From a virus, in IMG/VR virus record IMGVR_UViG_3300029337_000071, positions 11,801 through 75,800 of that record: a stretch of 64,000 bases of DNA; one strand, 5' to 3'. Below the pieces are notes generated by a model, which was not told where the DNA came from, did not search any database, and saw only the letters and a program-made list of their open reading frames with translations. Both the position numbers and the translations under genes were made by a program. Shown one piece after another: positions 3,454 through 59,511 of the stretch; the stretch's first letter is position 1; each line of letters begins with the position of its first letter.

Positions 3454-3951
3454 CTATCGAAGGTAATTCTTTAAGAAATATTCAAAGTATTCACGAATGA
3501 ATAAACCCGAATATTGATTATTTGGCATAAACATAACTGGAATGTTATACTTGAACCAAAAACTATGAATAGATGCTATAAAAGATTTTCGATTATACTT
3601 TGTATCATAATTGCCTGTGGCAATGTCTTCATAAGAAGCATTTTCGATTAACAATACTTTAGTCTTTGGTGCAAGACATAATTCTTTCTCAAATCTGTCA
3701 CGCTCTTTTGTCAAATTATTACTAATTTCTTCGAGACTTGCTTTTCGTTCAATTACGCAAGTGGTATTAAAATACAAATCACGAGGTATTGATAATTTCT
3801 CGTTAGCAGGAATCATAAAACTATAATCACCATAGTCAAGAGCTTTCTTCTTATAAGAAATTTCTTTTCTATCAAAATAATCTGTAATGTGAGAGTTTAC
3901 TTTCTCACGAGTATCTATAAGGATTACGATGGAAGATATTAACTCTTCCAT
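3454..3951 (-). CDS. ERCC4 (XPF/Mus81)-type nuclease, possible junction resolvase
   Basis: Motifs IDTREK ... LDYGDYSF ... VIERKASLEEIS match the ERCC4 D.RE...GDY...ERK pattern. Start at MEEL has TAAGGAG immediately upstream. Confidence 0.5.
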   Translation of the reverse strand: MEELISSIVILIDTREKVNSHITDYFDRKEISYKKKALDYGDYSFMIPANEKLSIPRDLYFNTTCVIERKASLEEISNNLTKERDRFEKELCLAPKTKVLLIENASYEDIATGNYDTKYNRKSFIASIHSFWFKYNIPVMFMPNNQYSGLFIREYFEYFLKNYLR

Positions 3952-11466: not shown

Positions 11467-11938
11467 CTACGCTTTCTTCAATTTCAGATAAACTTCTACG
11501 TTTATTTCTTCTCTTATAATTCATAATTGGCATATCAACTTCAACTTCTCTCGGTTTTTCAGACTCTTTCATTTTAAAGTCAGTCAAATTATTTTTAAGT
11601 ATTGCAGCGAAATACCGAATTTTTGCATATTCACTTACAAAATCCTTTTCAAGAACCCTTGTTATATACTCTTTATTCTCTGTTAGATATGCCAAAATAT
11701 GTTCATAAGAATATACATCTAATAAAAGATTTATCTCTTTGAACAAAGCGGAATTTAAAACTTTATATCCAAATATCTGATTAATACATTCGTATGTATT
11801 ATCTTTTACTTCCTTTTCGTGCAATACTTTCTGATATTCAGATTCATTGCAATAGTAGGTGTTTTTGCCACCTACTACCACTTTGAATGCTTCATTTCTA
11901 TCTACTTTAGTACCACACAGTCTGCATTTAACCAGCAT
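11459..11938 (-). CDS. zinc-ribbon hypothetical protein
   Basis: N-terminal CRLCGTK...YYCNESEY. Confidence 0.45.
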   Translation of the reverse strand: MLVKCRLCGTKVDRNEAFKVVVGGKNTYYCNESEYQKVLHEKEVKDNTYECINQIFGYKVLNSALFKEINLLLDVYSYEHILAYLTENKEYITRVLEKDFVSEYAKIRYFAAILKNNLTDFKMKESEKPREVEVDMPIMNYKRRNKRRSLSEIEESVGD

Positions 11939-50014: not shown

Positions 50015-50087
50015 CTAGGCTGGTGGGACTTGAATCCACGAATGTCAGAATCAAAATCTGATGTGTTGACCACTTCACCACATCCCA
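50015..50087 (-). tRNA. tRNA-Gln(UUG)-like, 73 nt, with non-canonical pairs; no encoded CCA
   Basis: Hand-folded. Acceptor UGGGAUG/CAGCCUA pairs 6 of 7. D-arm GUGA-AGUGGUCA-ACAC. Anticodon arm UCAGA-UUUUGAU-UCUGA is perfect, with U33 and A37. Variable loop is 5 nt. T-arm GUGGA-UUCAAGU-CCCAC. Confidence 0.4.
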
Positions 50088-50133: not shown

Positions 50134-51003
50134 TTACTTATCTGTTACAACTGTATTGTTAGTTCCAGAAATAGTAACCCAACCAAATTTATTTCTTGCT
50201 TCGGCTTCCTTCATTCTTATAAGCTCATCTGTAATAGAAGAACTTAACTTATTATTCGCCTCTGCCTGTGCTTTGGCTTCGATTAACTGTGCATCAGCCT
50301 TTGCTTGTGCTTCTGCCTTAGTTACTTCTGCATCAGCCTTTGCCTTATTAATAGCTGTCTGATTATTAATTTCCTGAGTTTCGGCTGCCTGCTGTGCTGT
50401 AATCTTTGCATTAATAGCTTCCTGTGTCTTTGTATCAACGGAAATATTAATCAATGATACATTACTAATCGCTATACCATATGGTTCAAACTTCTTATTA
50501 AGATAATCAGTTAATGCTGTATTTACATTTGCTCTTTCAGAACCAAGAATATCTGACACCTTATAGTTAGCAACAATTTCTTTAGTCCAAGAAATAATGT
50601 TAGGTTTAATAAAACTGTCTCTTACTTCCTTTCCAGATTGTCCTCTAAATCTTGTAAATAGATCAGCTACCTTATCAGGACTATACTGATATGTAAATGT
50701 AAGATCTATCTGCATAGCCTTACCCTCAGATGAACTCGCTGAAAAGCTGTCATCATCTTTAGAGTCTCCGTCCTTACCAGATGTTAAATAACTCTGTTCA
50801 AGACTCACCGAGTAAAGTGTCGTTTTTACAGTTGGTGACTTTAAATGCCATCCTTGTGTAAGAATATCGCCTTTTACTCCACCCGACATACTGTACTGTA
50901 CGGCAATATAGCCAGCAGGTACACGCACACTTGACATAAATAATAATATTGCTACAACAACAATTACTACTACTGTTACTACTCCTCCGATTGTTTTCTT
51001 CAT
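50134..51003 (-). CDS. SPFH/band-7 (prohibitin/HflC-like) domain membrane protein
   Basis: N-terminal TM helix, then an SPFH-like core and a C-terminal Ala/Lys/Glu-rich coiled coil. Confidence 0.55.
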   Translation of the reverse strand: MKKTIGGVVTVVVIVVVAILLFMSSVRVPAGYIAVQYSMSGGVKGDILTQGWHLKSPTVKTTLYSVSLEQSYLTSGKDGDSKDDDSFSASSSEGKAMQIDLTFTYQYSPDKVADLFTRFRGQSGKEVRDSFIKPNIISWTKEIVANYKVSDILGSERANVNTALTDYLNKKFEPYGIAISNVSLINISVDTKTQEAINAKITAQQAAETQEINNQTAINKAKADAEVTKAEAQAKADAQLIEAKAQAEANNKLSSSITDELIRMKEAEARNKFGWVTISGTNNTVVTDK

Positions 51004-51161
51004 TCTTTTGTCTCCTTTTCTTCGTTATTATTTATTTCATCTGTCGAAAATACTTTATTTATAACATTGATAACAAACTTACCAATTTTTTCAAATAAAG
51101 GTGACAGTAGAAACCATAAAATTATTAATCCTATTAAAACTAATATAAAAAATACTGACAT
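51000..51161 (-). CDS. small membrane protein (53 aa), translationally coupled (ATGA overlap) to the SPFH gene
   Basis: Unlisted ORF MSVFFILVLIGLIILWFLL... with GGAGAATAGTTAA upstream. Its stop overlaps the SPFH start. Confidence 0.4.
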   Translation of the reverse strand: MSVFFILVLIGLIILWFLLSPLFEKIGKFVINVINKVFSTDEINNNEEKETKE

Positions 51162-51276
51162 TTAACTATTCTCCTTTTCGTATTATATTTTTCTTCCATT
51201 AGCTTGATAATCTCAACATTTCTGTAGTATCTATATTGAATAATCATTTTACTGAGTAAAATGTTGTCTTAACCGT

Positions 51277-51312
51277 GTTTTGTATCTATGTTAAATTAAA
51301 CATATCTAAAAC
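51277..51312 (-). CRISPR. orphan degenerate CRISPR-like repeat (unit C) downstream of the nuclease gene
   Basis: GTTTTGTATCTATGTTAAATTAAACATATCTAAAAC is about 26 of 36 identical to the array repeat. Confidence 0.5.
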
Positions 51313-51420
51313 CTCAAATCACACAGATACTATTAACATAGATTCTAACGAGTGCCATTAATTAACAACCTCGCCATTCAGGTGCAAAATCACCTGCAAT
51401 CTTACGATTGATTAAGTAGC
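51313..51420 (-). ncRNA. conserved structured RNA element E1 (candidate tracrRNA/omega-RNA-like scaffold), directly after the nuclease stop codon
   Basis: Starts CTCAAA; contains hairpin CAGGTG-CAAAAT-CACCTG (51379..51396). Homologous to E2 and E3. Confidence 0.45.
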
Positions 51421-51422
51421 AC

Positions 51423-52811
51423 TTAAGCTACTTTATTATTCTCTGAACCATTCTTACTTTGTTCATATTTTTCAGAGATATCATAATATTCTCTTGCTTC
51501 CTGTTTACTCTTTTCAGTAACTTGTCCACTTCCCATCCAAAGAGTTGACATTGCAATGTTTCTGGCAGCATTGAAGTCTGCATTAAAACCAGTTTTTTCA
51601 TATTTTTTATGACTATCACAATTCTCATTTGCACATTCAAATACTGACTGTGACTTTCTCTGACCAAACTCCCAATTACCACATACACTACAAATCTGTG
51701 ATGTATAACAAGGATTGATTTTTCTTACTTCTATTCCGTATTTAGCTGCTTTATATGTAATATAATCTTGAAGTTTATAATAACTCCAATTTCTCAGGAT
51801 AAAATCACTTGTATCATATCCTGTTAAATTCTCAATATTTATGTATTTAGCATTATGTTTTAAAGCAAAATCAACGACTCTTTTACTTATCATATGACAA
51901 TATGTTTCAACAAAATGTACTTCTGCTTTCTGCAATCTTTCTAATGCTTTCAGTTTCTTTGCTCTACCATGACCACCAGAAGTATTTCGTAATGACTTCT
52001 GTAATCTTTTTCTCTGAGCTTGCATTTTAGTTCTTATTCTTAGAAAATCATCTGCATTTCCAATTGCCAATCTCTCGTAAAGATTATTGTTTAAAGCACA
52101 CATAGCAGGAACTGCAATGCCTAAATCAACACCTACTACTATATTTTCATCCAGCTCTCTAAGTTGTTTTGGAATAGATATTGAGAGATTTAAAATGATT
52201 GACTTACCATCAATTTCAATGCTACTTCCTTGCACTTTATAATTCTCTTCTAATATATTCTGAATAACAGATCTTAACTCTAATGACCTATGCGGATTGC
52301 CAAACACAACCTTAAATACAATTTTATTAACCCACTTGACATATACCGCCAAATCAGAATCATTAATCTTGTCTAAAAAATCATGATATGTTTCATACTC
52401 ATGATAAAAAGTTAAGTTTCTGCCTCTTGTAATAAGTGGATTAGTTCTCTTATAATTTGTTACAGTTCGTTCACCTTTAGCCAATCCATTCTTTAAAGCT
52501 GTGCTGAAATCCTGCTTGACTTTCTGAGTAACGGCTGATGGAGTGTCTACACCAGTTGCAAAATCAATATCTTTTAATATGATATTAGAGTTTGTCATTA
52601 TTTCTTTCTGTCTTGCCTTAAATTCTTCATTCTTAATATCACGATTATATTTGTAATATTCACTCATAAGCTGTCCCATAAGCAGGTTACAAGCCTGATA
52701 TTGAGCATACTGACCATTTCTAATAAAATCATATACTCTATTGATTTCATCCTTATCTCCTACTGGAAATAATTTAATTTTTCTACAAATTGTCATTCTA
52801 TTGTTTCCCAT
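51423..52811 (-). CDS. cas12f: Cas12f (Cas14)/TnpB-family RNA-guided nuclease, 462 aa
   Basis: RuvC-I VGVDLGIAVPAMCALNN; Arg/Lys-rich bridge QRKRLQKSLRNTSGGHGRAKKLKALERLQK; RuvC-II INIENLTG; zinc finger CYTSQICSVCG...ECANENC; RuvC-III NADFNAARNIA; N-terminal KIKLFPVGD. Collinear with Cas14a/Un1Cas12f1 from memory. Confidence 0.7.
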   Translation of the reverse strand: MGNNRMTICRKIKLFPVGDKDEINRVYDFIRNGQYAQYQACNLLMGQLMSEYYKYNRDIKNEEFKARQKEIMTNSNIILKDIDFATGVDTPSAVTQKVKQDFSTALKNGLAKGERTVTNYKRTNPLITRGRNLTFYHEYETYHDFLDKINDSDLAVYVKWVNKIVFKVVFGNPHRSLELRSVIQNILEENYKVQGSSIEIDGKSIILNLSISIPKQLRELDENIVVGVDLGIAVPAMCALNNNLYERLAIGNADDFLRIRTKMQAQRKRLQKSLRNTSGGHGRAKKLKALERLQKAEVHFVETYCHMISKRVVDFALKHNAKYINIENLTGYDTSDFILRNWSYYKLQDYITYKAAKYGIEVRKINPCYTSQICSVCGNWEFGQRKSQSVFECANENCDSHKKYEKTGFNADFNAARNIAMSTLWMGSGQVTEKSKQEAREYYDISEKYEQSKNGSENNKVA

Positions 52812-52892
52812 AATTTGTAAATCTCCTTTTATATTTTTTGTAATTTTAAATATCTCTAAAATTAAACAGTTTACAAGTACAACAACGCAAGT

Positions 52893-53059
52893 GTTTTATA
52901 CCTATGTAATTTTATATGTATCTAAAACTGTCATTAACTTTTATTTTCATATTTTTAGTTTTATACCTATGTAATTTTATATGTATCTAAAACGTATAGT
53001 TTGCCACTATATCTGCAAATGGTGTTTTATACCTATGTAATTTTATATGTATCTAAAAC
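52893..53059 (-). CRISPR. mini CRISPR array 1: three identical 36-nt repeats (GTTTTATACCTATGTAATTTTATATGTATCTAAAAC) and two spacers of 29 and 30 nt
   Basis: Repeats at 52893-52928, 52958-52993 and 53024-53059. Spacers are tgtcattaacttttattttcatattttta and gtatagtttgccactatatctgcaaatggt. Strand is uncertain; minus is inferred from the co-oriented gene and leader-like E elements. Confidence 0.7.
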
Positions 53060-53158
53060 CTCAAACTTATTACATAGATTTTCATGAGTTGCATTGCACT
53101 CACGATTCGGCAGTAAAATCTACCGCAATAGAATTGATTTTAATTTCATTTATATATT
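53060..53158 (-). ncRNA. conserved structured RNA element E2 (candidate scaffold/tracr-like or leader) between the two arrays
   Basis: Starts CTCAAA; hairpins GAGTTGCATTGCACTC and CGGCAG-TAAAAT-CTACCG (53108..53125); contains an inverted copy (ATTACATAG) of the repeat core. Confidence 0.45.
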
Positions 53159-53322
53159 CTTTTAATGAGATGTAATTTTATATACTTCTAAAATTTTATA
53201 ACTTGTGTCGATATATATCATGTAATTTTGCTAGTATGTAACTATACTTCCAAAACAACTGAAACATCTCCTCTCTGTTGCCAGGTATTTTGTTAGTATG
53301 TAATTTCATATACTTCCAAAAC
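53159..53322 (-). CRISPR. mini CRISPR array 2: three degenerate repeats (36, 32 and 36 nt) and two 30-nt spacers
   Basis: Repeats at 53159-53194, 53225-53256 and 53287-53322 (ATTTTGTTAGTATGTAATTTCATATACTTCCAAAAC type). Spacers are tttataacttgtgtcgatatatatcatgta and aactgaaacatctcctctctgttgccaggt. Confidence 0.55.
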
Positions 53323-53405
53323 TTCAAATTACATATAAATTACATACTTTTCAGTGAGTGATATAATCCTCACTATTCGGACTCAAAATAGCCCGTAGTC
53401 AAAAG
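53323..53405 (-). ncRNA. conserved structured RNA element E3
   Basis: Starts TTCAAA; hairpins GTGAGTGATATAATCCTCACT and CGGACT-CAAAAT-AGCCCG (53378..53395); contains an anti-repeat-like ACATATAAATTACATA. Confidence 0.45.
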
Positions 53406-53487
53406 ACTAATTGTTATAGGATAAACTGGCTTGAATTAGCCAAATAGATTTGTTATAATAGAACATATATAGTTTATCCTATATTTT

Positions 53488-53530
53488 ATTCTCTGAGCAG
53501 ATTGTTTAGGTCGGCAAACTTTTGCAATCT
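53488..53530. terminator. long imperfect hairpin (GAGCAGATTG...CAATCTGTTC) flanked by T-rich sequence on the plus strand
   Basis: 10-bp stem with one mismatch, located between the CRISPR region and the next gene. Confidence 0.3.
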
Positions 53531-53538
53531 GTTCTCTT

Positions 53539-53682
53539 CTATTTAATATCTTCCCAATCGGTTTCATCCTTATCATTAGAAAAATTCATGAATAAGTGAA
53601 TATATAATTCAATAATTCGCTCCTTTGATAAGGCTTGTAACTGTTTTCTAAGTTCATTTCGCTTATTTGTATCTTTATCCAT
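53539..53682 (-). CDS. small hypothetical protein (47 aa)
   Basis: Unlisted ORF. AGGAGAATAATAAA lies upstream of the ATG. Confidence 0.3.
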   Translation of the reverse strand: MDKDTNKRNELRKQLQALSKERIIELYIHLFMNFSNDKDETDWEDIK

Positions 53683-53701
53683 TTTATTATTCTCCTGTAT
53701 T

Positions 53702-53902
53702 TTAGCATCTTACTAACAAGCTACTTATATCATCAGCAAGTACTTCTCTGTCAGTAACAATCCATTGACACCTAAAATCTCTATCTGCACATAACGAAGT
53801 AAAATCAGCATAACTTTGTATCTTATCTGGCTTTGCTATTGCTCTATAACACTGTTTTCTTCTTTCACATGTTTTGCTTGTACACATTGTAATATCTGGC
53901 AT
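53702..53902 (-). CDS. Cys-rich hypothetical protein (66 aa)
   Basis: ORF. Confidence 0.4.
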   Translation of the reverse strand: MPDITMCTSKTCERRKQCYRAIAKPDKIQSYADFTSLCADRDFRCQWIVTDREVLADDISSLLVRC

Positions 53903-53904
53903 AG

Positions 53905-54099
53905 TTATTTTTCTCCCTTATACTCTTTTAAAATATCCTGTAAATTGCTATAATGTATATACATAAATTGACCATACCCATTATCTTTTTTGAATCCGTC
54001 TAATTGCATATATAAACAAATATCAGACAAGGTTTCCATTATTTCAATTTGCATTTTCTTTTTTAATACAATACTTTTTAACAATGTTTTAATTAACAC
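53905..54099 (-). CDS. hypothetical protein (64 aa)
   Basis: ORF. Confidence 0.35.
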   Translation of the reverse strand: MLIKTLLKSIVLKKKMQIEIMETLSDICLYMQLDGFKKDNGYGQFMYIHYSNLQDILKEYKGEK

Positions 54100-55633
54100 T
54101 AGCTGTTCTTCCTTTCTCCATATTATTTAAGAAATTTATGTAATTATCAAAATCTCTCTTCATATATCTATAATTTACTTCCTGCGAAGAACTATATGTC
54201 TTATCAATTGAATTCTTCTGATACTGTTCAATCCAAGTTGCAAGTTCTTCATCCTTATCAGTTTTATAAGCATAAGCTGTTAATGCCATTAACGCTGCTT
54301 CACACTGTTTATATAACGATGAATTTATATCAATATATACATCAACAAAATCTTGATATTCACTTATATCTTCATTCTCTATATCTTCTGCCACACTATT
54401 TTGAACAAACTGTAATACATCAGAACTACCCGTATTCTGTTCTGATATATTACTATCTGTTTCATCGTCTTCATTAGAAGACATAGTATTATTCTCTGTT
54501 TCAGAGATAATTTGTACTGTGTTTTCTGTTGTATTTTCAACAACTTCTTCGATTTCTGAATGAGTTTCTTCCTTATTTATATGTAAATATTCTTCCATAA
54601 GCTTAGTAACCATATCTAACTTAGCCATTACAACTTTTTTATCCTTTGTGCTTCGGTTGCTATCATATGTATCAAATGATTCATTATCATATTCTTTAAA
54701 TGTCATGCTATGTAATATTCCCTGAAATTCATTTAAGAAATCAGCAAATTTAATATCTTCTATGTTATATGAAGTAAACTTATGAAAAGCTGCCAACCAA
54801 ATAAAGCTATTCTTGCTATTAAATAACTGTCCGTTAGTATCTTGATCTATTACTTTTTGTAATCTATTAAGTTCCTCTTCTAATATATTGAATTCCTCTT
54901 CTGCGGCATTTTCATTAAGATACTTAGCCATAGCTGCGTTTTTCTTCCAAGAATCAGAATGGAACATTAACATTAATGACTCTTCAACTACTCTATTTAA
55001 TACTTCTTTCTTTCTTTCAGGTGCTGTATATTCACCACAGTCCAAGAAGAATCTATTCTTTGTAACCCTTTTAAGTGAATCTACCACTTTATACATCATC
55101 AAAACATTTTTCTGATTTGTATTCATACTTGTCTGCTTATTATATCTATCAATATGATAAGCTATCTCTTCATTAGTACAATCAAGATGCTTAACTATAT
55201 CTACCTGGAAATTATCAAATTCTTCTCTTAACTCATCTGGAAGGTCTTTGTATTTCTTACCTCTTAAATCATACTCAACAACATTACCACTTCCATCTTC
55301 AGCTTGATAAGCTATCATAGGCATTCTCAATGATTTTCCCATTGCAAAGACATTATTTTTAAACTCTTCCAATACAGTTAATCTCTGTAATCCATCAATA
55401 AGCCAGTTTGTGAAACTATTTTCGTAAATCTGTTCACATAATTTAATTGAATCAATATCTTCATGTTTAATTACACTGGCAGCAAGTCCAGATTTTGCTT
55501 CGTCCGACCACTGATCAGGTTTTCTCTGTAATGGATGATTCTTATTGATTACATTTGTTCTAAACTGCTTAATCACCGTTCCTAACATTAATTGTGTCTT
55601 TACTACCTTATCTCTTCCTAACATTACTGCCAT
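54089..55633 (-). CDS. DUF262 (ParB/Srx-like nuclease domain) protein with acidic C-terminal region
   Basis: IDGLQRLT (DGQQR motif of DUF262) near the N-terminus; 514 aa; AAGGGAGAATATTACA RBS upstream. Confidence 0.5.
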   Translation of the reverse strand: MAVMLGRDKVVKTQLMLGTVIKQFRTNVINKNHPLQRKPDQWSDEAKSGLAASVIKHEDIDSIKLCEQIYENSFTNWLIDGLQRLTVLEEFKNNVFAMGKSLRMPMIAYQAEDGSGNVVEYDLRGKKYKDLPDELREEFDNFQVDIVKHLDCTNEEIAYHIDRYNKQTSMNTNQKNVLMMYKVVDSLKRVTKNRFFLDCGEYTAPERKKEVLNRVVEESLMLMFHSDSWKKNAAMAKYLNENAAEEEFNILEEELNRLQKVIDQDTNGQLFNSKNSFIWLAAFHKFTSYNIEDIKFADFLNEFQGILHSMTFKEYDNESFDTYDSNRSTKDKKVVMAKLDMVTKLMEEYLHINKEETHSEIEEVVENTTENTVQIISETENNTMSSNEDDETDSNISEQNTGSSDVLQFVQNSVAEDIENEDISEYQDFVDVYIDINSSLYKQCEAALMALTAYAYKTDKDEELATWIEQYQKNSIDKTYSSSQEVNYRYMKRDFDNYINFLNNMEKGRTASVN

Positions 55634-55651
55634 TGTAATATTCTCCCTTCT

Positions 55652-56308
55652 TTAATTAAATAATAATGATATGTATTCGTATGACTTTAGAATCTTCATA
55701 CAGTCTAATAATTGTTGTTCTGTTATATGTAATAATTCCATAATTTCATCTCGATTGTATTCTTGAGAAAATAACTTTGCTACGCCTCTAACTCTTTTAG
55801 GTAAATTGCTAAGATATAGTTCAACCTTATCTGTATATTCCTCCGCAATGAGAATATCTTCTATGTTTATCTTGGATGATAGTGTTTCTTTTAAATTCTG
55901 TGTTTCGTCACTATCCAAGTCAAATGAAACATTGTCAATTCTTATAGGTCTTTTCTTGCCATTAACATCTTCATATATAATCTTTCCATTACCATCTCTG
56001 GCAAGATTATTTCGGCAGCCTGTATATTTATTATCCCGAAACCAACTGTAAGACGATCTTGAAATATTACTCGTTAGGTAAGTTTCAAATTTTGCCTTAC
56101 TTTTAGCGTCATATGTAACTAAAGATTCTATTAATACTTCTATAGCATCGTCAAGCAATTCATCTTCTTCGTAATTATCAACCTTACCTTTCCATATTTT
56201 ATAGCAAATATTTTTTAACTTCTTCATTTCATTTGCCATATATAAATCAAGTATTTCTGACAATTTAGGATTGTTTTTAATAACCAACATCATTTCTTTA
56301 TTAATCAT
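55652..56308 (-). CDS. sigma-70 family RNA polymerase sigma factor-like protein
   Basis: C-terminal region-4-like HTH LSNLPKRVRGVAKLFSQEYNRDEIMELLHITEQQL. Confidence 0.45.
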   Translation of the reverse strand: MINKEMMLVIKNNPKLSEILDLYMANEMKKLKNICYKIWKGKVDNYEEDELLDDAIEVLIESLVTYDAKSKAKFETYLTSNISRSSYSWFRDNKYTGCRNNLARDGNGKIIYEDVNGKKRPIRIDNVSFDLDSDETQNLKETLSSKINIEDILIAEEYTDKVELYLSNLPKRVRGVAKLFSQEYNRDEIMELLHITEQQLLDCMKILKSYEYISLLFN

Positions 56309-58494: not shown

Positions 58495-59511
58495 TCACAT
58501 ATTATTTAGTACATCTTTCATTCCCACTGCTCCATTTGCATAATTTTTGACAGTTGTTTTTACACTACTATGCCCAAGCTGCTGTTGTACGAATGCAAGA
58601 TTTCCATTTTGATTCATTACAGTAGCATAATAATGTCTCATCATATGTGCAGTAATACCATTTCCGTAATTTTCAAATATCTGCTTAATATTTTTCTCTG
58701 TTGTACGTGTTCCGTTTTTATTAATAAAAACTGCTTCTGTATCAATAATATTATCCAATGTCAACCTATACTCTAACCACTCTTTCAATGCTTTTAAGGC
58801 TGATCCGCTAAGATATACGGTTCTATTTTGCATTTCTCTGTACACACCTTTGCCAAGAATAGTAATGTATGGCATTTCTTCCTTCAAATGTAAATCAGAT
58901 AAATCTAAGCCAGCAAGCTCTGACTCTCTTATACCAGTGCCCCTTAATACCCTAAAGATAGCAATATTCCTATTTTTTACTGCAATATCCTTTTTCCACA
59001 TTATCTTCTCTTCCATGTCATTAAGCTGCTTTTCTGTTGGAAGTTTTTTTATTAAGTTGTTTCCAGATGGGATTCCCTTATATTTAATCATTTTGTAAAA
59101 ATCTTCTATATTACTATAAACTTCTCTTAACAAACACTCTCTGTATGAATAAATATCCTGTATAAAACTTTTAATGATATTTTTCCTTGTTTCTGTTGTG
59201 GTTGGTGACATTCCATTTGTTTCCTTATATCTAAGATATGAACTAATATTTTGTGGTCTTAGGTCATTAAAATCAGAAACTTCTATTTCAGAAATTGATT
59301 TCTTATTAATAATATTACTTTCAATCAACCACTGTAAAAAATCTTTAATTGCCACTAAATAATTTAGCGCTCCGTTTTTGCTTTCCAACTCATTTAAGTA
59401 ATCTCTTAAAAATTGTGGTGCATTTAACTCATCTAATTTTTTATTAAGCTTCTCCGCATTTTTATTCTGCACTTCTATTTTATAACACATTATCATCAAC
59501 CTACCTTTCAT
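58495..59511 (-). CDS. tyrosine recombinase/integrase
   Basis: C-terminal catalytic region TAHMMRHYYATVM...LGHSSVKTTVKNYANGAV (R..H..R/H..Y). Confidence 0.6.
   Translation of the reverse strand: MKGRLMIMCYKIEVQNKNAEKLNKKLDELNAPQFLRDYLNELESKNGALNYLVAIKDFLQWLIESNIINKKSISEIEVSDFNDLRPQNISSYLRYKETNGMSPTTTETRKNIIKSFIQDIYSYRECLLREVYSNIEDFYKMIKYKGIPSGNNLIKKLPTEKQLNDMEEKIMWKKDIAVKNRNIAIFRVLRGTGIRESELAGLDLSDLHLKEEMPYITILGKGVYREMQNRTVYLSGSALKALKEWLEYRLTLDNIIDTEAVFINKNGTRTTEKNIKQIFENYGNGITAHMMRHYYATVMNQNGNLAFVQQQLGHSSVKTTVKNYANGAVGMKDVLNNM

Follow-up and report, generated by a model that had tools for sequence, protein, structure and literature searches.

What does a miniature type V CRISPR locus without adaptation genes do in a phage genome, and how might it obtain its spacers? 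The question is raised by 64,000 nucleotides (nt) of viral DNA, positions 11,801 to 75,800 of the IMG/VR record IMGVR_UViG_3300029337_000071 and referred to below as the window, in which an initial annotation had described a 462-residue nuclease of the Cas12f/TnpB family, here termed cas12f, accompanied by repeat arrays. The analysis presented here indicates, at a probability of roughly 0.8, a phage-encoded, nuclease-active type V-F1 (Cas12f1) CRISPR system for conflicts between mobile elements. Coordinates of the locus are collected in Table 1; loci and proteins used for comparison carry L and P numbers, respectively.

Identity of the effector

The initial annotation had proposed that the protein be placed by comparison with Cas12f and TnpB profiles and structures. 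When this was done the best matches were the PADLOC models Cas12u3 (E 1.1e-110, covering profile positions 1-390 of 398) and Cas12f PDLC01699 (E 2.5e-110) and the solved structures PDB 8HR5 (E 1.3e-87) and 9NZP (E 2e-81), which are CnCas12f1 and RhCas12f, respectively (PMC13186708). Al3Cas12f, AsCas12f and Un1Cas12f were the next structures, a dead Cas12f structure (9n9c) was a distant match, and ISDra2 TnpB was matched at E 2e-3 only. In Pfam the Cas12f1-like_TNB domain was found, together with a weak OrfB_IS605 match. The NCBIfam model guided_TnpB was passed (161.8 bits against a cut-off of 100), as is expected because Cas12f descends from TnpB, and IS200_TnpB failed (45.6 against 425 bits). 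Identity as Cas12f2 or Cas12k was ruled out by scores far below the NCBIfam cut-offs (107.6 against 450 bits and 24 against 150 bits, respectively).

The RuvC motifs and zinc finger previously reported for the protein were recovered, with intact catalytic residues D229 (GVDLG), E327 (NIENL) and D412 (NADFN) and a CxxC...CxxxxC finger formed by C374, C377, C393 and C398, all at positions that align with motifs of solved Cas12f enzymes. The full-length matches to Cas12u3/Cas12f and to CnCas12f1 and RhCas12f, taken with these motifs, identify the effector as a Cas12f1 of the bacterial V-U3 branch, and it therefore belongs to the type V-F1 (formerly V-U3) clade. The suggestion that it might be a distinct effector was overstated, as this clade is already characterised; the group lacks adaptation genes (PMC7229846; PMC10691335) and includes enzymes with C-rich protospacer-adjacent motifs (PAMs; PMC7229846). 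The open reading frame (ORF) remains intact, with 95-100% conservation among 19 phages.

Catalytic residues have been lost in three relatives of 56-70% identity on phage-sized contigs, P0022 and P0037 carrying GVNLG and P0120 carrying GVKLG and NLMNL. These proteins may bind under RNA guidance instead of cutting, as does the 'dCas14' of phages described in 2020.

Guide-RNA scaffolds fused to the repeats

Alignment showed that each of the three repeat clusters is headed on the gene strand by a scaffold of approximately 90 nt, resembling a trans-activating CRISPR RNA (tracrRNA) and running without a gap into the first repeat; all three scaffolds had been overlooked in the initial annotation. Scaffold A starts 8 nt past the cas12f stop codon, the position of a TnpB omegaRNA. 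In its 5' part the unit folds into a small hairpin (stem 0), a stem 1 with loop AUUUUG or AUUUUA and a single-stranded CCGAAU, followed in its 3' part by stem 2 (GUGAG...CACUCA) and a helix of the anti-repeat with the 3' half of the repeat. The three units fold better than shuffles, scaffold C, with loop AUUUUG, giving a fold z of -4.86.

Covariation was measured on 21 different units aligned from the window and related loci, with pairs counted for a pre-specified structure in which the loop of stem 1 also forms a pseudoknot with the repeat's final five bases. Paired cells amounted to 94.7%, both-sided changes were present in 16 of 27 base pairs, and the covariation score of 0.463 compared with 0.171 for shuffles, none of 500 reaching the observed value, and with at most 0.063 for slid-partner controls. 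The pseudoknot helix was 100% paired and three of its five pairs were compensatory, the variants being UUUUG:CAAAA, UUUUA:UAAAA, UUUCG:CGAAA and CUUUG:CAAAG. Many G-U pairs were present, in both orientations, indicating that the RNA is read from the gene strand. A Cas9-type tracrRNA on the plus strand was rejected, as its anti-repeat would miss the first bases of the repeat and the G-U pairs would turn into A-C mismatches.

A covariance model (CM) derived from these aligned units and run over the 64 kb returned exactly three modules, A, B and C, and no others, and found one to seven modules beside every relative, including loci outside its training set, always on the gene strand; in nine of nine bacterial relatives a module lies just downstream of the gene. 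The repeat sequence differs among the three modules, with matching changes in each scaffold. The published RhCas12f1 tracrRNA shares the order of motifs (ACGGTTGATTTAGCAACCGAAGTCTGAGG...CCACTCGG), namely an ACGG-stem, an ATTTnG loop, CCGAA, a TGAGG...CACTC stem and the anti-repeat, and has a loop, AUUUA, able to pair with the repeat end UAAAU; it differs in an extra stem before the anti-repeat, which the scaffolds described here lack. The fold, the covariation and this motif order indicate that each scaffold is the equivalent of a tracrRNA, attached in cis to the first repeat, and a scaffold with its first repeat is predicted to be a natural single guide for the first spacer.

In distant phage relatives up to seven scaffold and mini-array modules stand in tandem, mostly downstream of the gene (L022 3276-6121; L023 3276-6150). 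Elsewhere a scaffold with half a repeat is found without the TTTGAG junction or an array (L050 9282-9374; L051 7518-7626 and 9330-9429; L006 and L010 5397-5480). Such collapsed modules look like fixed guides in the manner of omegaRNAs, or like decay products in L005-L010 and L013. Arrays resembling omegaRNAs and having long direct repeats have been noted for Cas12f1 and V-U40-43 (PMC10691335), a remark that the tandem modules and the collapsed single guides of some bacterial relatives fit.

Repeat arrays

Array repeats are 36 nt long, start with GTTTTAGA, end in AAAAC and recur with a strict repeat-spacer period of 65-66 nt. The perfect upstream array of the initial annotation, array B, was found as described, with three identical repeats (GTTTTAGATACATATAAAATTACATAGGTATAAAAC on the gene strand) and spacers of 30 and 29 nt. 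Between this array and cas12f a third spacer and a decayed fourth repeat had been overlooked; the spacer (B3) is common to the window, L001-L003 and L019, and the repeat extends into the ribosome-binding site of cas12f. A second, degenerate array of three repeats does exist (array C), but it sits farther upstream and not between the gene and the perfect array, where it had been placed. Both of its fossil spacers are kept in many relatives, several of which also carry a fresh spacer that the window lacks. The orphan repeat downstream of the gene was likewise located and belongs to module A, which in L002, L003, L014-L017 and L019 possesses one spacer and a second repeat.

Table 1. Features of the cas12f locus, in order on the gene strand (TRF, Tandem Repeats Finder)
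Feature	Position	Strand	Description
Terminator-like hairpin	53426-53443	-	just upstream of module C
Scaffold C	53323-53414	-	ends ATTTGAA (53323-53329), abuts first repeat; CM hit 53287-53414, 128.4 bits
Array C	53159-53322	-	old, degenerate; repeats 53287-53322, 53225-53260, 53159-53194; fossil spacers 53261-53286, 53195-53224
Scaffold B	53060-53146	-	ends GTTTGAG (53060-53066), fused to first perfect repeat; CM hit 53024-53146, 114.7 bits
Array B	52893-53059	-	three identical 36-nt repeats, 52893-52928, 52958-52993, 53024-53059; TRF score 215
Spacer B1	52994-53023		30 nt, ACCATTTGCAGATATAGTGGCAAACTATAC
Spacer B2	52929-52957		29 nt, TAAAAATATGAAAATAAAAGTTAATGACA
Array B trailer end	52827-52892	-	ancestral spacer B3 (52863-52892), decayed fourth repeat (52827-52862)
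cas12f	51423-52811	-	462 residues, Cas12f1/V-U3 clade; ORF, Pfam, NCBIfam, PDB and PADLOC matches
Scaffold A	51313-51415	-	ends exact ATTTGAG (51313-51319); CM hit 51277-51415, 115.9 bits
Module A single repeat	51277-51312	-	GTTTTAGATATGTTTAATTTAACATAGATACAAAAC; downstream of cas12f, no spacer in the window

Targets and protospacer-adjacent motif

A search of the spacers against phage, plasmid and host sequences had been suggested as a check on the locus. Comparison of 35 and then 62 concatenated spacers with INPHARED phages and PLSDB plasmids gave one 23-nt chance match and nothing usable, whereas exact-pattern scans of IMG/VR and metagenome contigs yielded seven distinct protospacers. Three other collection scans returned array copies only and no protospacers, and no self-targets were detected in the window and related loci. 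All seven protospacers carry 5'-CCA at the scaffold-facing spacer end; no 3' motif is shared, 3' NGG being present in only one of the seven. The natural targets thus suggest a PAM of 5'-CCA, and the published PAM of RhCas12f1 is 5'-NCCD, with CCA working best.

The B1 protospacer was present in 20 gut metagenome contigs, mostly preceded by 5'-CCA, within a conserved non-coding stretch adjoining a Rep_3 initiator gene, and homologues of this target occur on small plasmids of gut Clostridia (Waltera intestinalis, Mediterraneibacter gnavus, Butyricicoccus and others). The same 70-bp plasmid region was matched by an array C spacer of L011 and L013 and by a spacer of L001, the L011/L013 match being offset by 4 nt because the target sequence CCAACCA contains two PAMs. 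Spacer B2 matched perfectly in seven viral contigs of 24-46 kb, all with 5'-CCA, which encode a tape-measure protein and a serine integrase and are temperate siphovirus-like phages. A spacer common to L014-L018 matched three viral contigs of 42-49 kb, and a spacer of L006-L009 and one of L010 matched the same site, in opposite orientations, in the tyrosine-recombinase gene of a 28.6-kb element. PAM variants (TCA, CTA and CAA) were seen at a few targets. As the sequences matched by the spacers lie in other mobile elements and their PAM is consistent, a role in inter-element conflict is well supported. The initial annotation had envisaged use against competing elements or host defences; the plasmid and phage protospacers with CCA bear out the former, and no evidence was found for the latter.

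In one target phage TCA replaces CCA before an otherwise perfect protospacer (L034, approximately 3774-3797, compared with L035 and L038), and CTA or CAA precedes some plasmid target variants; these may be PAM escapes. The plasmid region matched by three independent spacers forms a conserved non-coding stretch of approximately 260 nt (L074 8948-9177; L064 approximately 860-1120), one copy of which matches the Rfam family SpF66, a Streptococcus small RNA (45.7 bits against a threshold of 42), and it may be a replication-control RNA. Translations of a 218-residue sigma-like ORF and a 514-residue ORF just upstream of the arrays (54089-56308) resemble those of ORFs of spacer-targeted elements (L038 4121-5929; L030 3983-5673); the phage and its targets may share a gene module and hence be related competitors.

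Spacer turnover in related phages

In nineteen phages with a 95-100% identical protein, content varied in all three arrays, each holding zero to four spacers, and between the window and L001-L003 the spacers differed in all three, with flanks and gene 98.6-99.7% identical. Old spacers and decayed repeats were held in common at the scaffold-distal end and unique spacers were always scaffold-proximal; nested growth was apparent in array B (L008 < L006 < L007 and L017 < L016) and in array C (L016 < L014/L018). Among 62 distinct spacers, lengths were 30 nt in 39 cases, 29 nt in 11 and 31 nt in five, so that 55 of the 62 fall within 29-31 nt. New spacers at the scaffold-proximal end and tight lengths are what integration that is polarised and controlled by a ruler leaves behind. 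In the phage population the arrays are thus alive.

Source of the spacers

No Cas1, Cas2 or Cas4 Pfam family was recorded within 10 kb on contigs with the identical protein, in agreement with the earlier statement that these genes are missing over that distance, nor was any recorded in the precomputed Pfam matches of near-identical contig tilings, which cover roughly the rest of the window. As none was found, the spacers are probably acquired with host enzymes; host-assisted acquisition is the somewhat favoured view, and a type II-A integrase as the acquirer is put forward tentatively, at clearly less than even odds.

A loan by V-F1 of a type I-B adaptation module was proposed in a 2024 preprint, from shared PAMs. 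The phage and L049, L054 and L056 have 36-nt repeats, 30-nt spacers and the junction ATTTGAG/GTTT, the slash marking the start of the repeat. The RhCas12f1 array combines a CCD PAM with a 30-nt repeat (GTTAAAAGCTAACTATAGTGGAATGTAAAT) that we take to resemble a type I-B repeat. A 32-nt repeat and a TTC-type PAM characterise the OsCas12f1 array, and the Anaerotignum relative L053 carries an array of 15 repeats of 33 nt, no cas gene lying within 8 kb of it; the repeats of these two presumably resemble type I-C.

In type II-A loci of group 1 the leader has ATTTGAG/GTTT as its conserved end (PMC5382924). The junction is exact in module A and reads GTTTGAG in B and ATTTGAA in C. Across 51 modules the TTTGAG/G columns are among the best conserved, though they lie in a hairpin loop. 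The candidate cis element TTTGAG/GTTT plus repeat is kept wherever an array exists, and TTTGAG and the 5' repeat half are absent from array-less collapsed modules of relatives (e.g. L050 and L051). This conservation and loss suggest that the element acts at the DNA level, in integration. Every mapped spacer, however, has its PAM-proximal end towards the leader, as the rule for types I and V has it and contrary to that for II-A, and this counts against a simple II-A loan. It is conceivable, though on balance doubtful, that the scaffold doubles as leader, its 3' end and the 36-nt repeat forming a II-A-like landing pad for a host integrase during infection. If so, Cas12f1 loci would be 'adaptation parasites' that keep only the 3' repeat part for their own RNA, the remaining repeat and junction would evolve to fit whichever integrase the host has, and one nuclease would be served by three mutually compensated scaffold-repeat pairs.

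Proposed mechanism and alternative explanations

All parts of the proposed system are read on the minus strand, with two guide-RNA modules upstream of cas12f and one straight after its stop codon; in each, a scaffold resembling a tracrRNA is linked in cis to a mini-array at its first repeat. The repeat's 3' half is paired with the scaffold anti-repeat, and its last five bases, beside the guide, form a pseudoknot with the stem-1 loop. The first spacer would in this way be part of a natural single-guide RNA, and repeat-spacer units farther along would use that scaffold by pairing in trans. Cas12f with its guide RNA would recognise and cut DNA with a 5'-CCA PAM, its current targets being small Rep_3 plasmids and temperate phages of approximately 24-46 kb in a shared host, and new 30-nt spacers would enter at the scaffold-repeat junction via a host integrase.

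The analysis demonstrates the identity of the effector, the fold of the RNA, the PAM, the targets and the turnover of the spacers with its polarity. Several points weigh against this reading. We infer DNA cleavage and the presence of the RNA, as well as its processing, the action of a scaffold in trans and the acquisition of spacers with help from the host, and the host integrase for spacer gain is presumed. The absence of Cas1, Cas2 and Cas4 rests on precomputed Pfam hits in near-identical contigs, and in a PADLOC scan of all 84 ORFs of the window the output was so crowded with methyltransferase families that these proteins could not be excluded. A promoter scan of the locus matched the shuffle expectation (20 found, 17.9 expected) in this AT-rich DNA. 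Local alignment of the scaffold with the published Rh and Cn-like tracrRNAs was marginal (z 0.3-5.5), so that homology to these rests on motif order and structure. In the window only array B is clearly current, array C being decayed and module A lacking a spacer.

If the gene and its RNA were simply a TnpB of IS200/605 type and the corresponding omegaRNA, with transposon-end debris as the repeats and a nuclease for transposon homing, this would account for the guided_TnpB score (161.8 against 100 bits), the weak OrfB_IS605 match and the omegaRNA-like start of one scaffold 8 nt past the stop codon. A mobile TnpB was nevertheless excluded by the lack of a transposase (no Y1 or serine transposase family being recorded within 10 kb) and of insertion sequence (IS) ends, by the single copy of the gene and its modules within 64 kb and by the reality of the spacers, which are diverse, keep the 65-66-nt period and match foreign DNA with one PAM. 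The locus also occupies the same site in many related phages and the best protein matches are to Cas12f, with ISDra2 TnpB at E 2e-3, leaving this explanation extremely unlikely; neither TnpA nor IS ends, which had been named at the outset as signs of an ordinary TnpB, were found, and the spacers differ between related genomes. That the locus is instead a decaying relic without current function in this phage would be in keeping with the degenerate repeats and fossil spacers of array C, with the spacer-less module A and with the truncation of that module in L005-L010 and L013. It is very improbable given an intact ORF conserved across the 19 phages, and an array B with three identical repeats and two spacers perfectly matching PAM-flanked contemporary gut sequences.

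The arrays might alternatively serve a host type II-A (Cas9) system or act as RNA anti-CRISPR decoys, with Cas12f merely a neighbour. Their 36-nt repeats with the ends given above, 30-nt spacers and group-1 leader end ATTTGAG/GTTT fit such a role, and sharing of repeats with hosts is known for huge phages (PMC7162821). Yet the repeat interior and 3' end co-vary with the scaffold anti-repeat and pseudoknot loop, which is typical of Cas12f/TnpB guide RNAs, no anti-repeat to the 5' repeat half, as needed by Cas9, was seen on either scaffold strand, and 5'-CCA stands at the leader-proximal end in seven of seven protospacers with 3' NGG in one; a II-A role is very unlikely. Loading of the arrays by a host NGG Cas9 was downgraded: although 5'-CCN reads as NGG on the complementary strand, spacers inserted by the II-A rule would have the opposite orientation. 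Guided binding without cutting, by an RNA-guided repressor or activator acting with a nearby sigma-like protein as in nuclease-dead Cas12f-sigma systems, draws on a sigma-70-region-2-like ORF two genes upstream (55652-56308), on the distant match to 9n9c, on the origin of sigma-linked inactive forms from the Cas12f1 clade (PMC10691335) and on relatives of 56-70% identity that have lost catalysis (D to N in P0022 and P0037; D to K and E to M in P0120). Because D229, E327 and D412 are kept and the spacers have their matches on plasmids and in other phages instead of in the window, such a regulatory, dCas12f-like role is unlikely.

Relation to known systems

Read as a nuclease-active Cas12f1 system, the locus shares with CnCas12f1 (8HR5) and RhCas12f1 (9NZP) near full-length protein similarity, a tri-split RuvC, a zinc finger and the lack of adaptation genes. 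It differs from them in being phage-borne, in having three RNA modules in place of one tracrRNA and one array, and in the direct fusion of scaffold to first repeat; its candidate PAM is 5'-CCA, compared with NCCD in RhCas12f1, and it has 36-nt repeats, 30-nt spacers and the ATTTGAG junction in contrast to the 30-nt RhCas12f1 repeat. Phage-borne V-F and V-U systems without Cas1, Cas2 and Cas4, among them the Cas-phi and dCas14 that huge phages encode, have been on record since 2020 (PMC7162821). These have the phage setting, compact arrays, lack of Cas1, Cas2 and Cas4 and anti-phage spacers in common with the present locus; its effector, unlike Cas-phi, is a Cas12f1-clade protein of approximately 460 residues, and the text consulted does not describe fused scaffold-array modules, spacer turnover or plasmid targets.

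As in TnpB-omegaRNA systems, a guide module lies directly 3' of the gene and scaffold and repeat would form one continuous RNA; unlike in those systems, there are no transposase or transposon ends and true repeat-spacer arrays grow behind each scaffold. TranC, a transposon-CRISPR intermediate cited in a preprint (bioRxiv 10.64898/2026.03.27.714800), is a TnpB-lineage effector using both a single guide like a right-end RNA (reRNA) and a tracrRNA:crRNA (CRISPR RNA) pair, and the cis-fused scaffold-repeat with arrays is suggestive of a TranC-like architecture; no solved TranC chain was among the PDB matches of the protein. With group-1 type II-A loci (S. thermophilus CRISPR1-like) are shared the 36-nt GTTTT-starting repeat, spacers of 30 +/- 1 nt, ATTTGAG/GTTT and leader-proximal insertion. 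The locus is unlike type II-A in that no cas9, cas1, cas2 or csn2 is recorded, in that the 'leader' is a structured Cas12f scaffold, and in its PAM, which is 5' of the protospacer at the leader-proximal spacer end, the opposite of the II-A rule.

Since the Cas12f1 clade, its PAMs and structures and phage V-F and V-U systems were already known, the effector adds a new member to an established family. To the extent of the literature searched, four features are new: a layout of three modules whose scaffolds are fused in cis, with one scaffold where an omegaRNA would lie; a junction and an array geometry like those of II-A; direct evidence from near-identical phages that spacers turn over with polarity; and the mapped plasmid and phage targets. 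A natural single-guide arrangement, a 462-residue nuclease and a simple CCA PAM would be useful for compact genome-editing tools, the scaffold, repeat and natural guides being readable directly from the sequence. A phage population that updates its anti-plasmid and anti-phage memory without adaptation genes of its own makes the origin of spacers in effector-only type V loci testable. One gene family spans every stage from omegaRNA-like fixed guide to tracrRNA-plus-array, and these stages bear on the origin of CRISPR arrays from TnpB guide RNAs.

Genome setting and neighbouring genes

The window has a G+C content of 29-34% and 83 of its 87 ORFs lie on the minus strand. PHROGs matches include DNA polymerase, primase, helicase, RecJ-like exonuclease and integrase, and relatives of the cas12f gene are found on 25 IMG/VR viral contigs of 32-186 kb, with an identical protein on three; both observations agree with the phage setting given in the initial annotation. 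No match was obtained when the locus was compared with GenBank phages by blastn, and an Rfam search of 50500-54500 with E up to 1 returned no family. Proteins identical to those of the window are encoded on ERZ27266144 k141_60313 (317 kb) and ERZ23880505 NODE_4 (447 kb), contigs far longer than the IMG/VR records; either the phage genome is much larger, or the element resides as a prophage in a bacterial chromosome.

Other genes of the window are an integrase (58495-59511), a helix-turn-helix gene and a PemK-type toxin. Between approximately 19 and 41 kb, annotation via L080 and L081 identified a nicotinamide adenine dinucleotide (NAD) salvage set of NAPRTase, nucleotidyltransferase and NAD synthase, together with several DNA methyltransferases, a PARG-like protein, an RNA ligase and an isochorismatase-family protein. 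A Band_7/SPFH gene adjoins cas12f both in the phage (window 50134-51003) and in the chromosomal Anaerotignum locus (L053 6923-7858), an adjacency that may be a coincidence or a conserved partnership. The hairpin upstream of module C may close the preceding gene, module C then opening a new transcript, although the evidence for this is weak. A tRNA-Gln gene (anticodon TTG) lies at 50015-50087 on the minus strand, approximately 1.3 kb downstream of the cas12f locus. In L014, L015 and L018 the sequence GGGCTGTGGTGAAGTGGTCAAC, which resembles a tRNA start, directly follows the last array A repeat, and the genes between array A and the tRNA may have been deleted in these phages.

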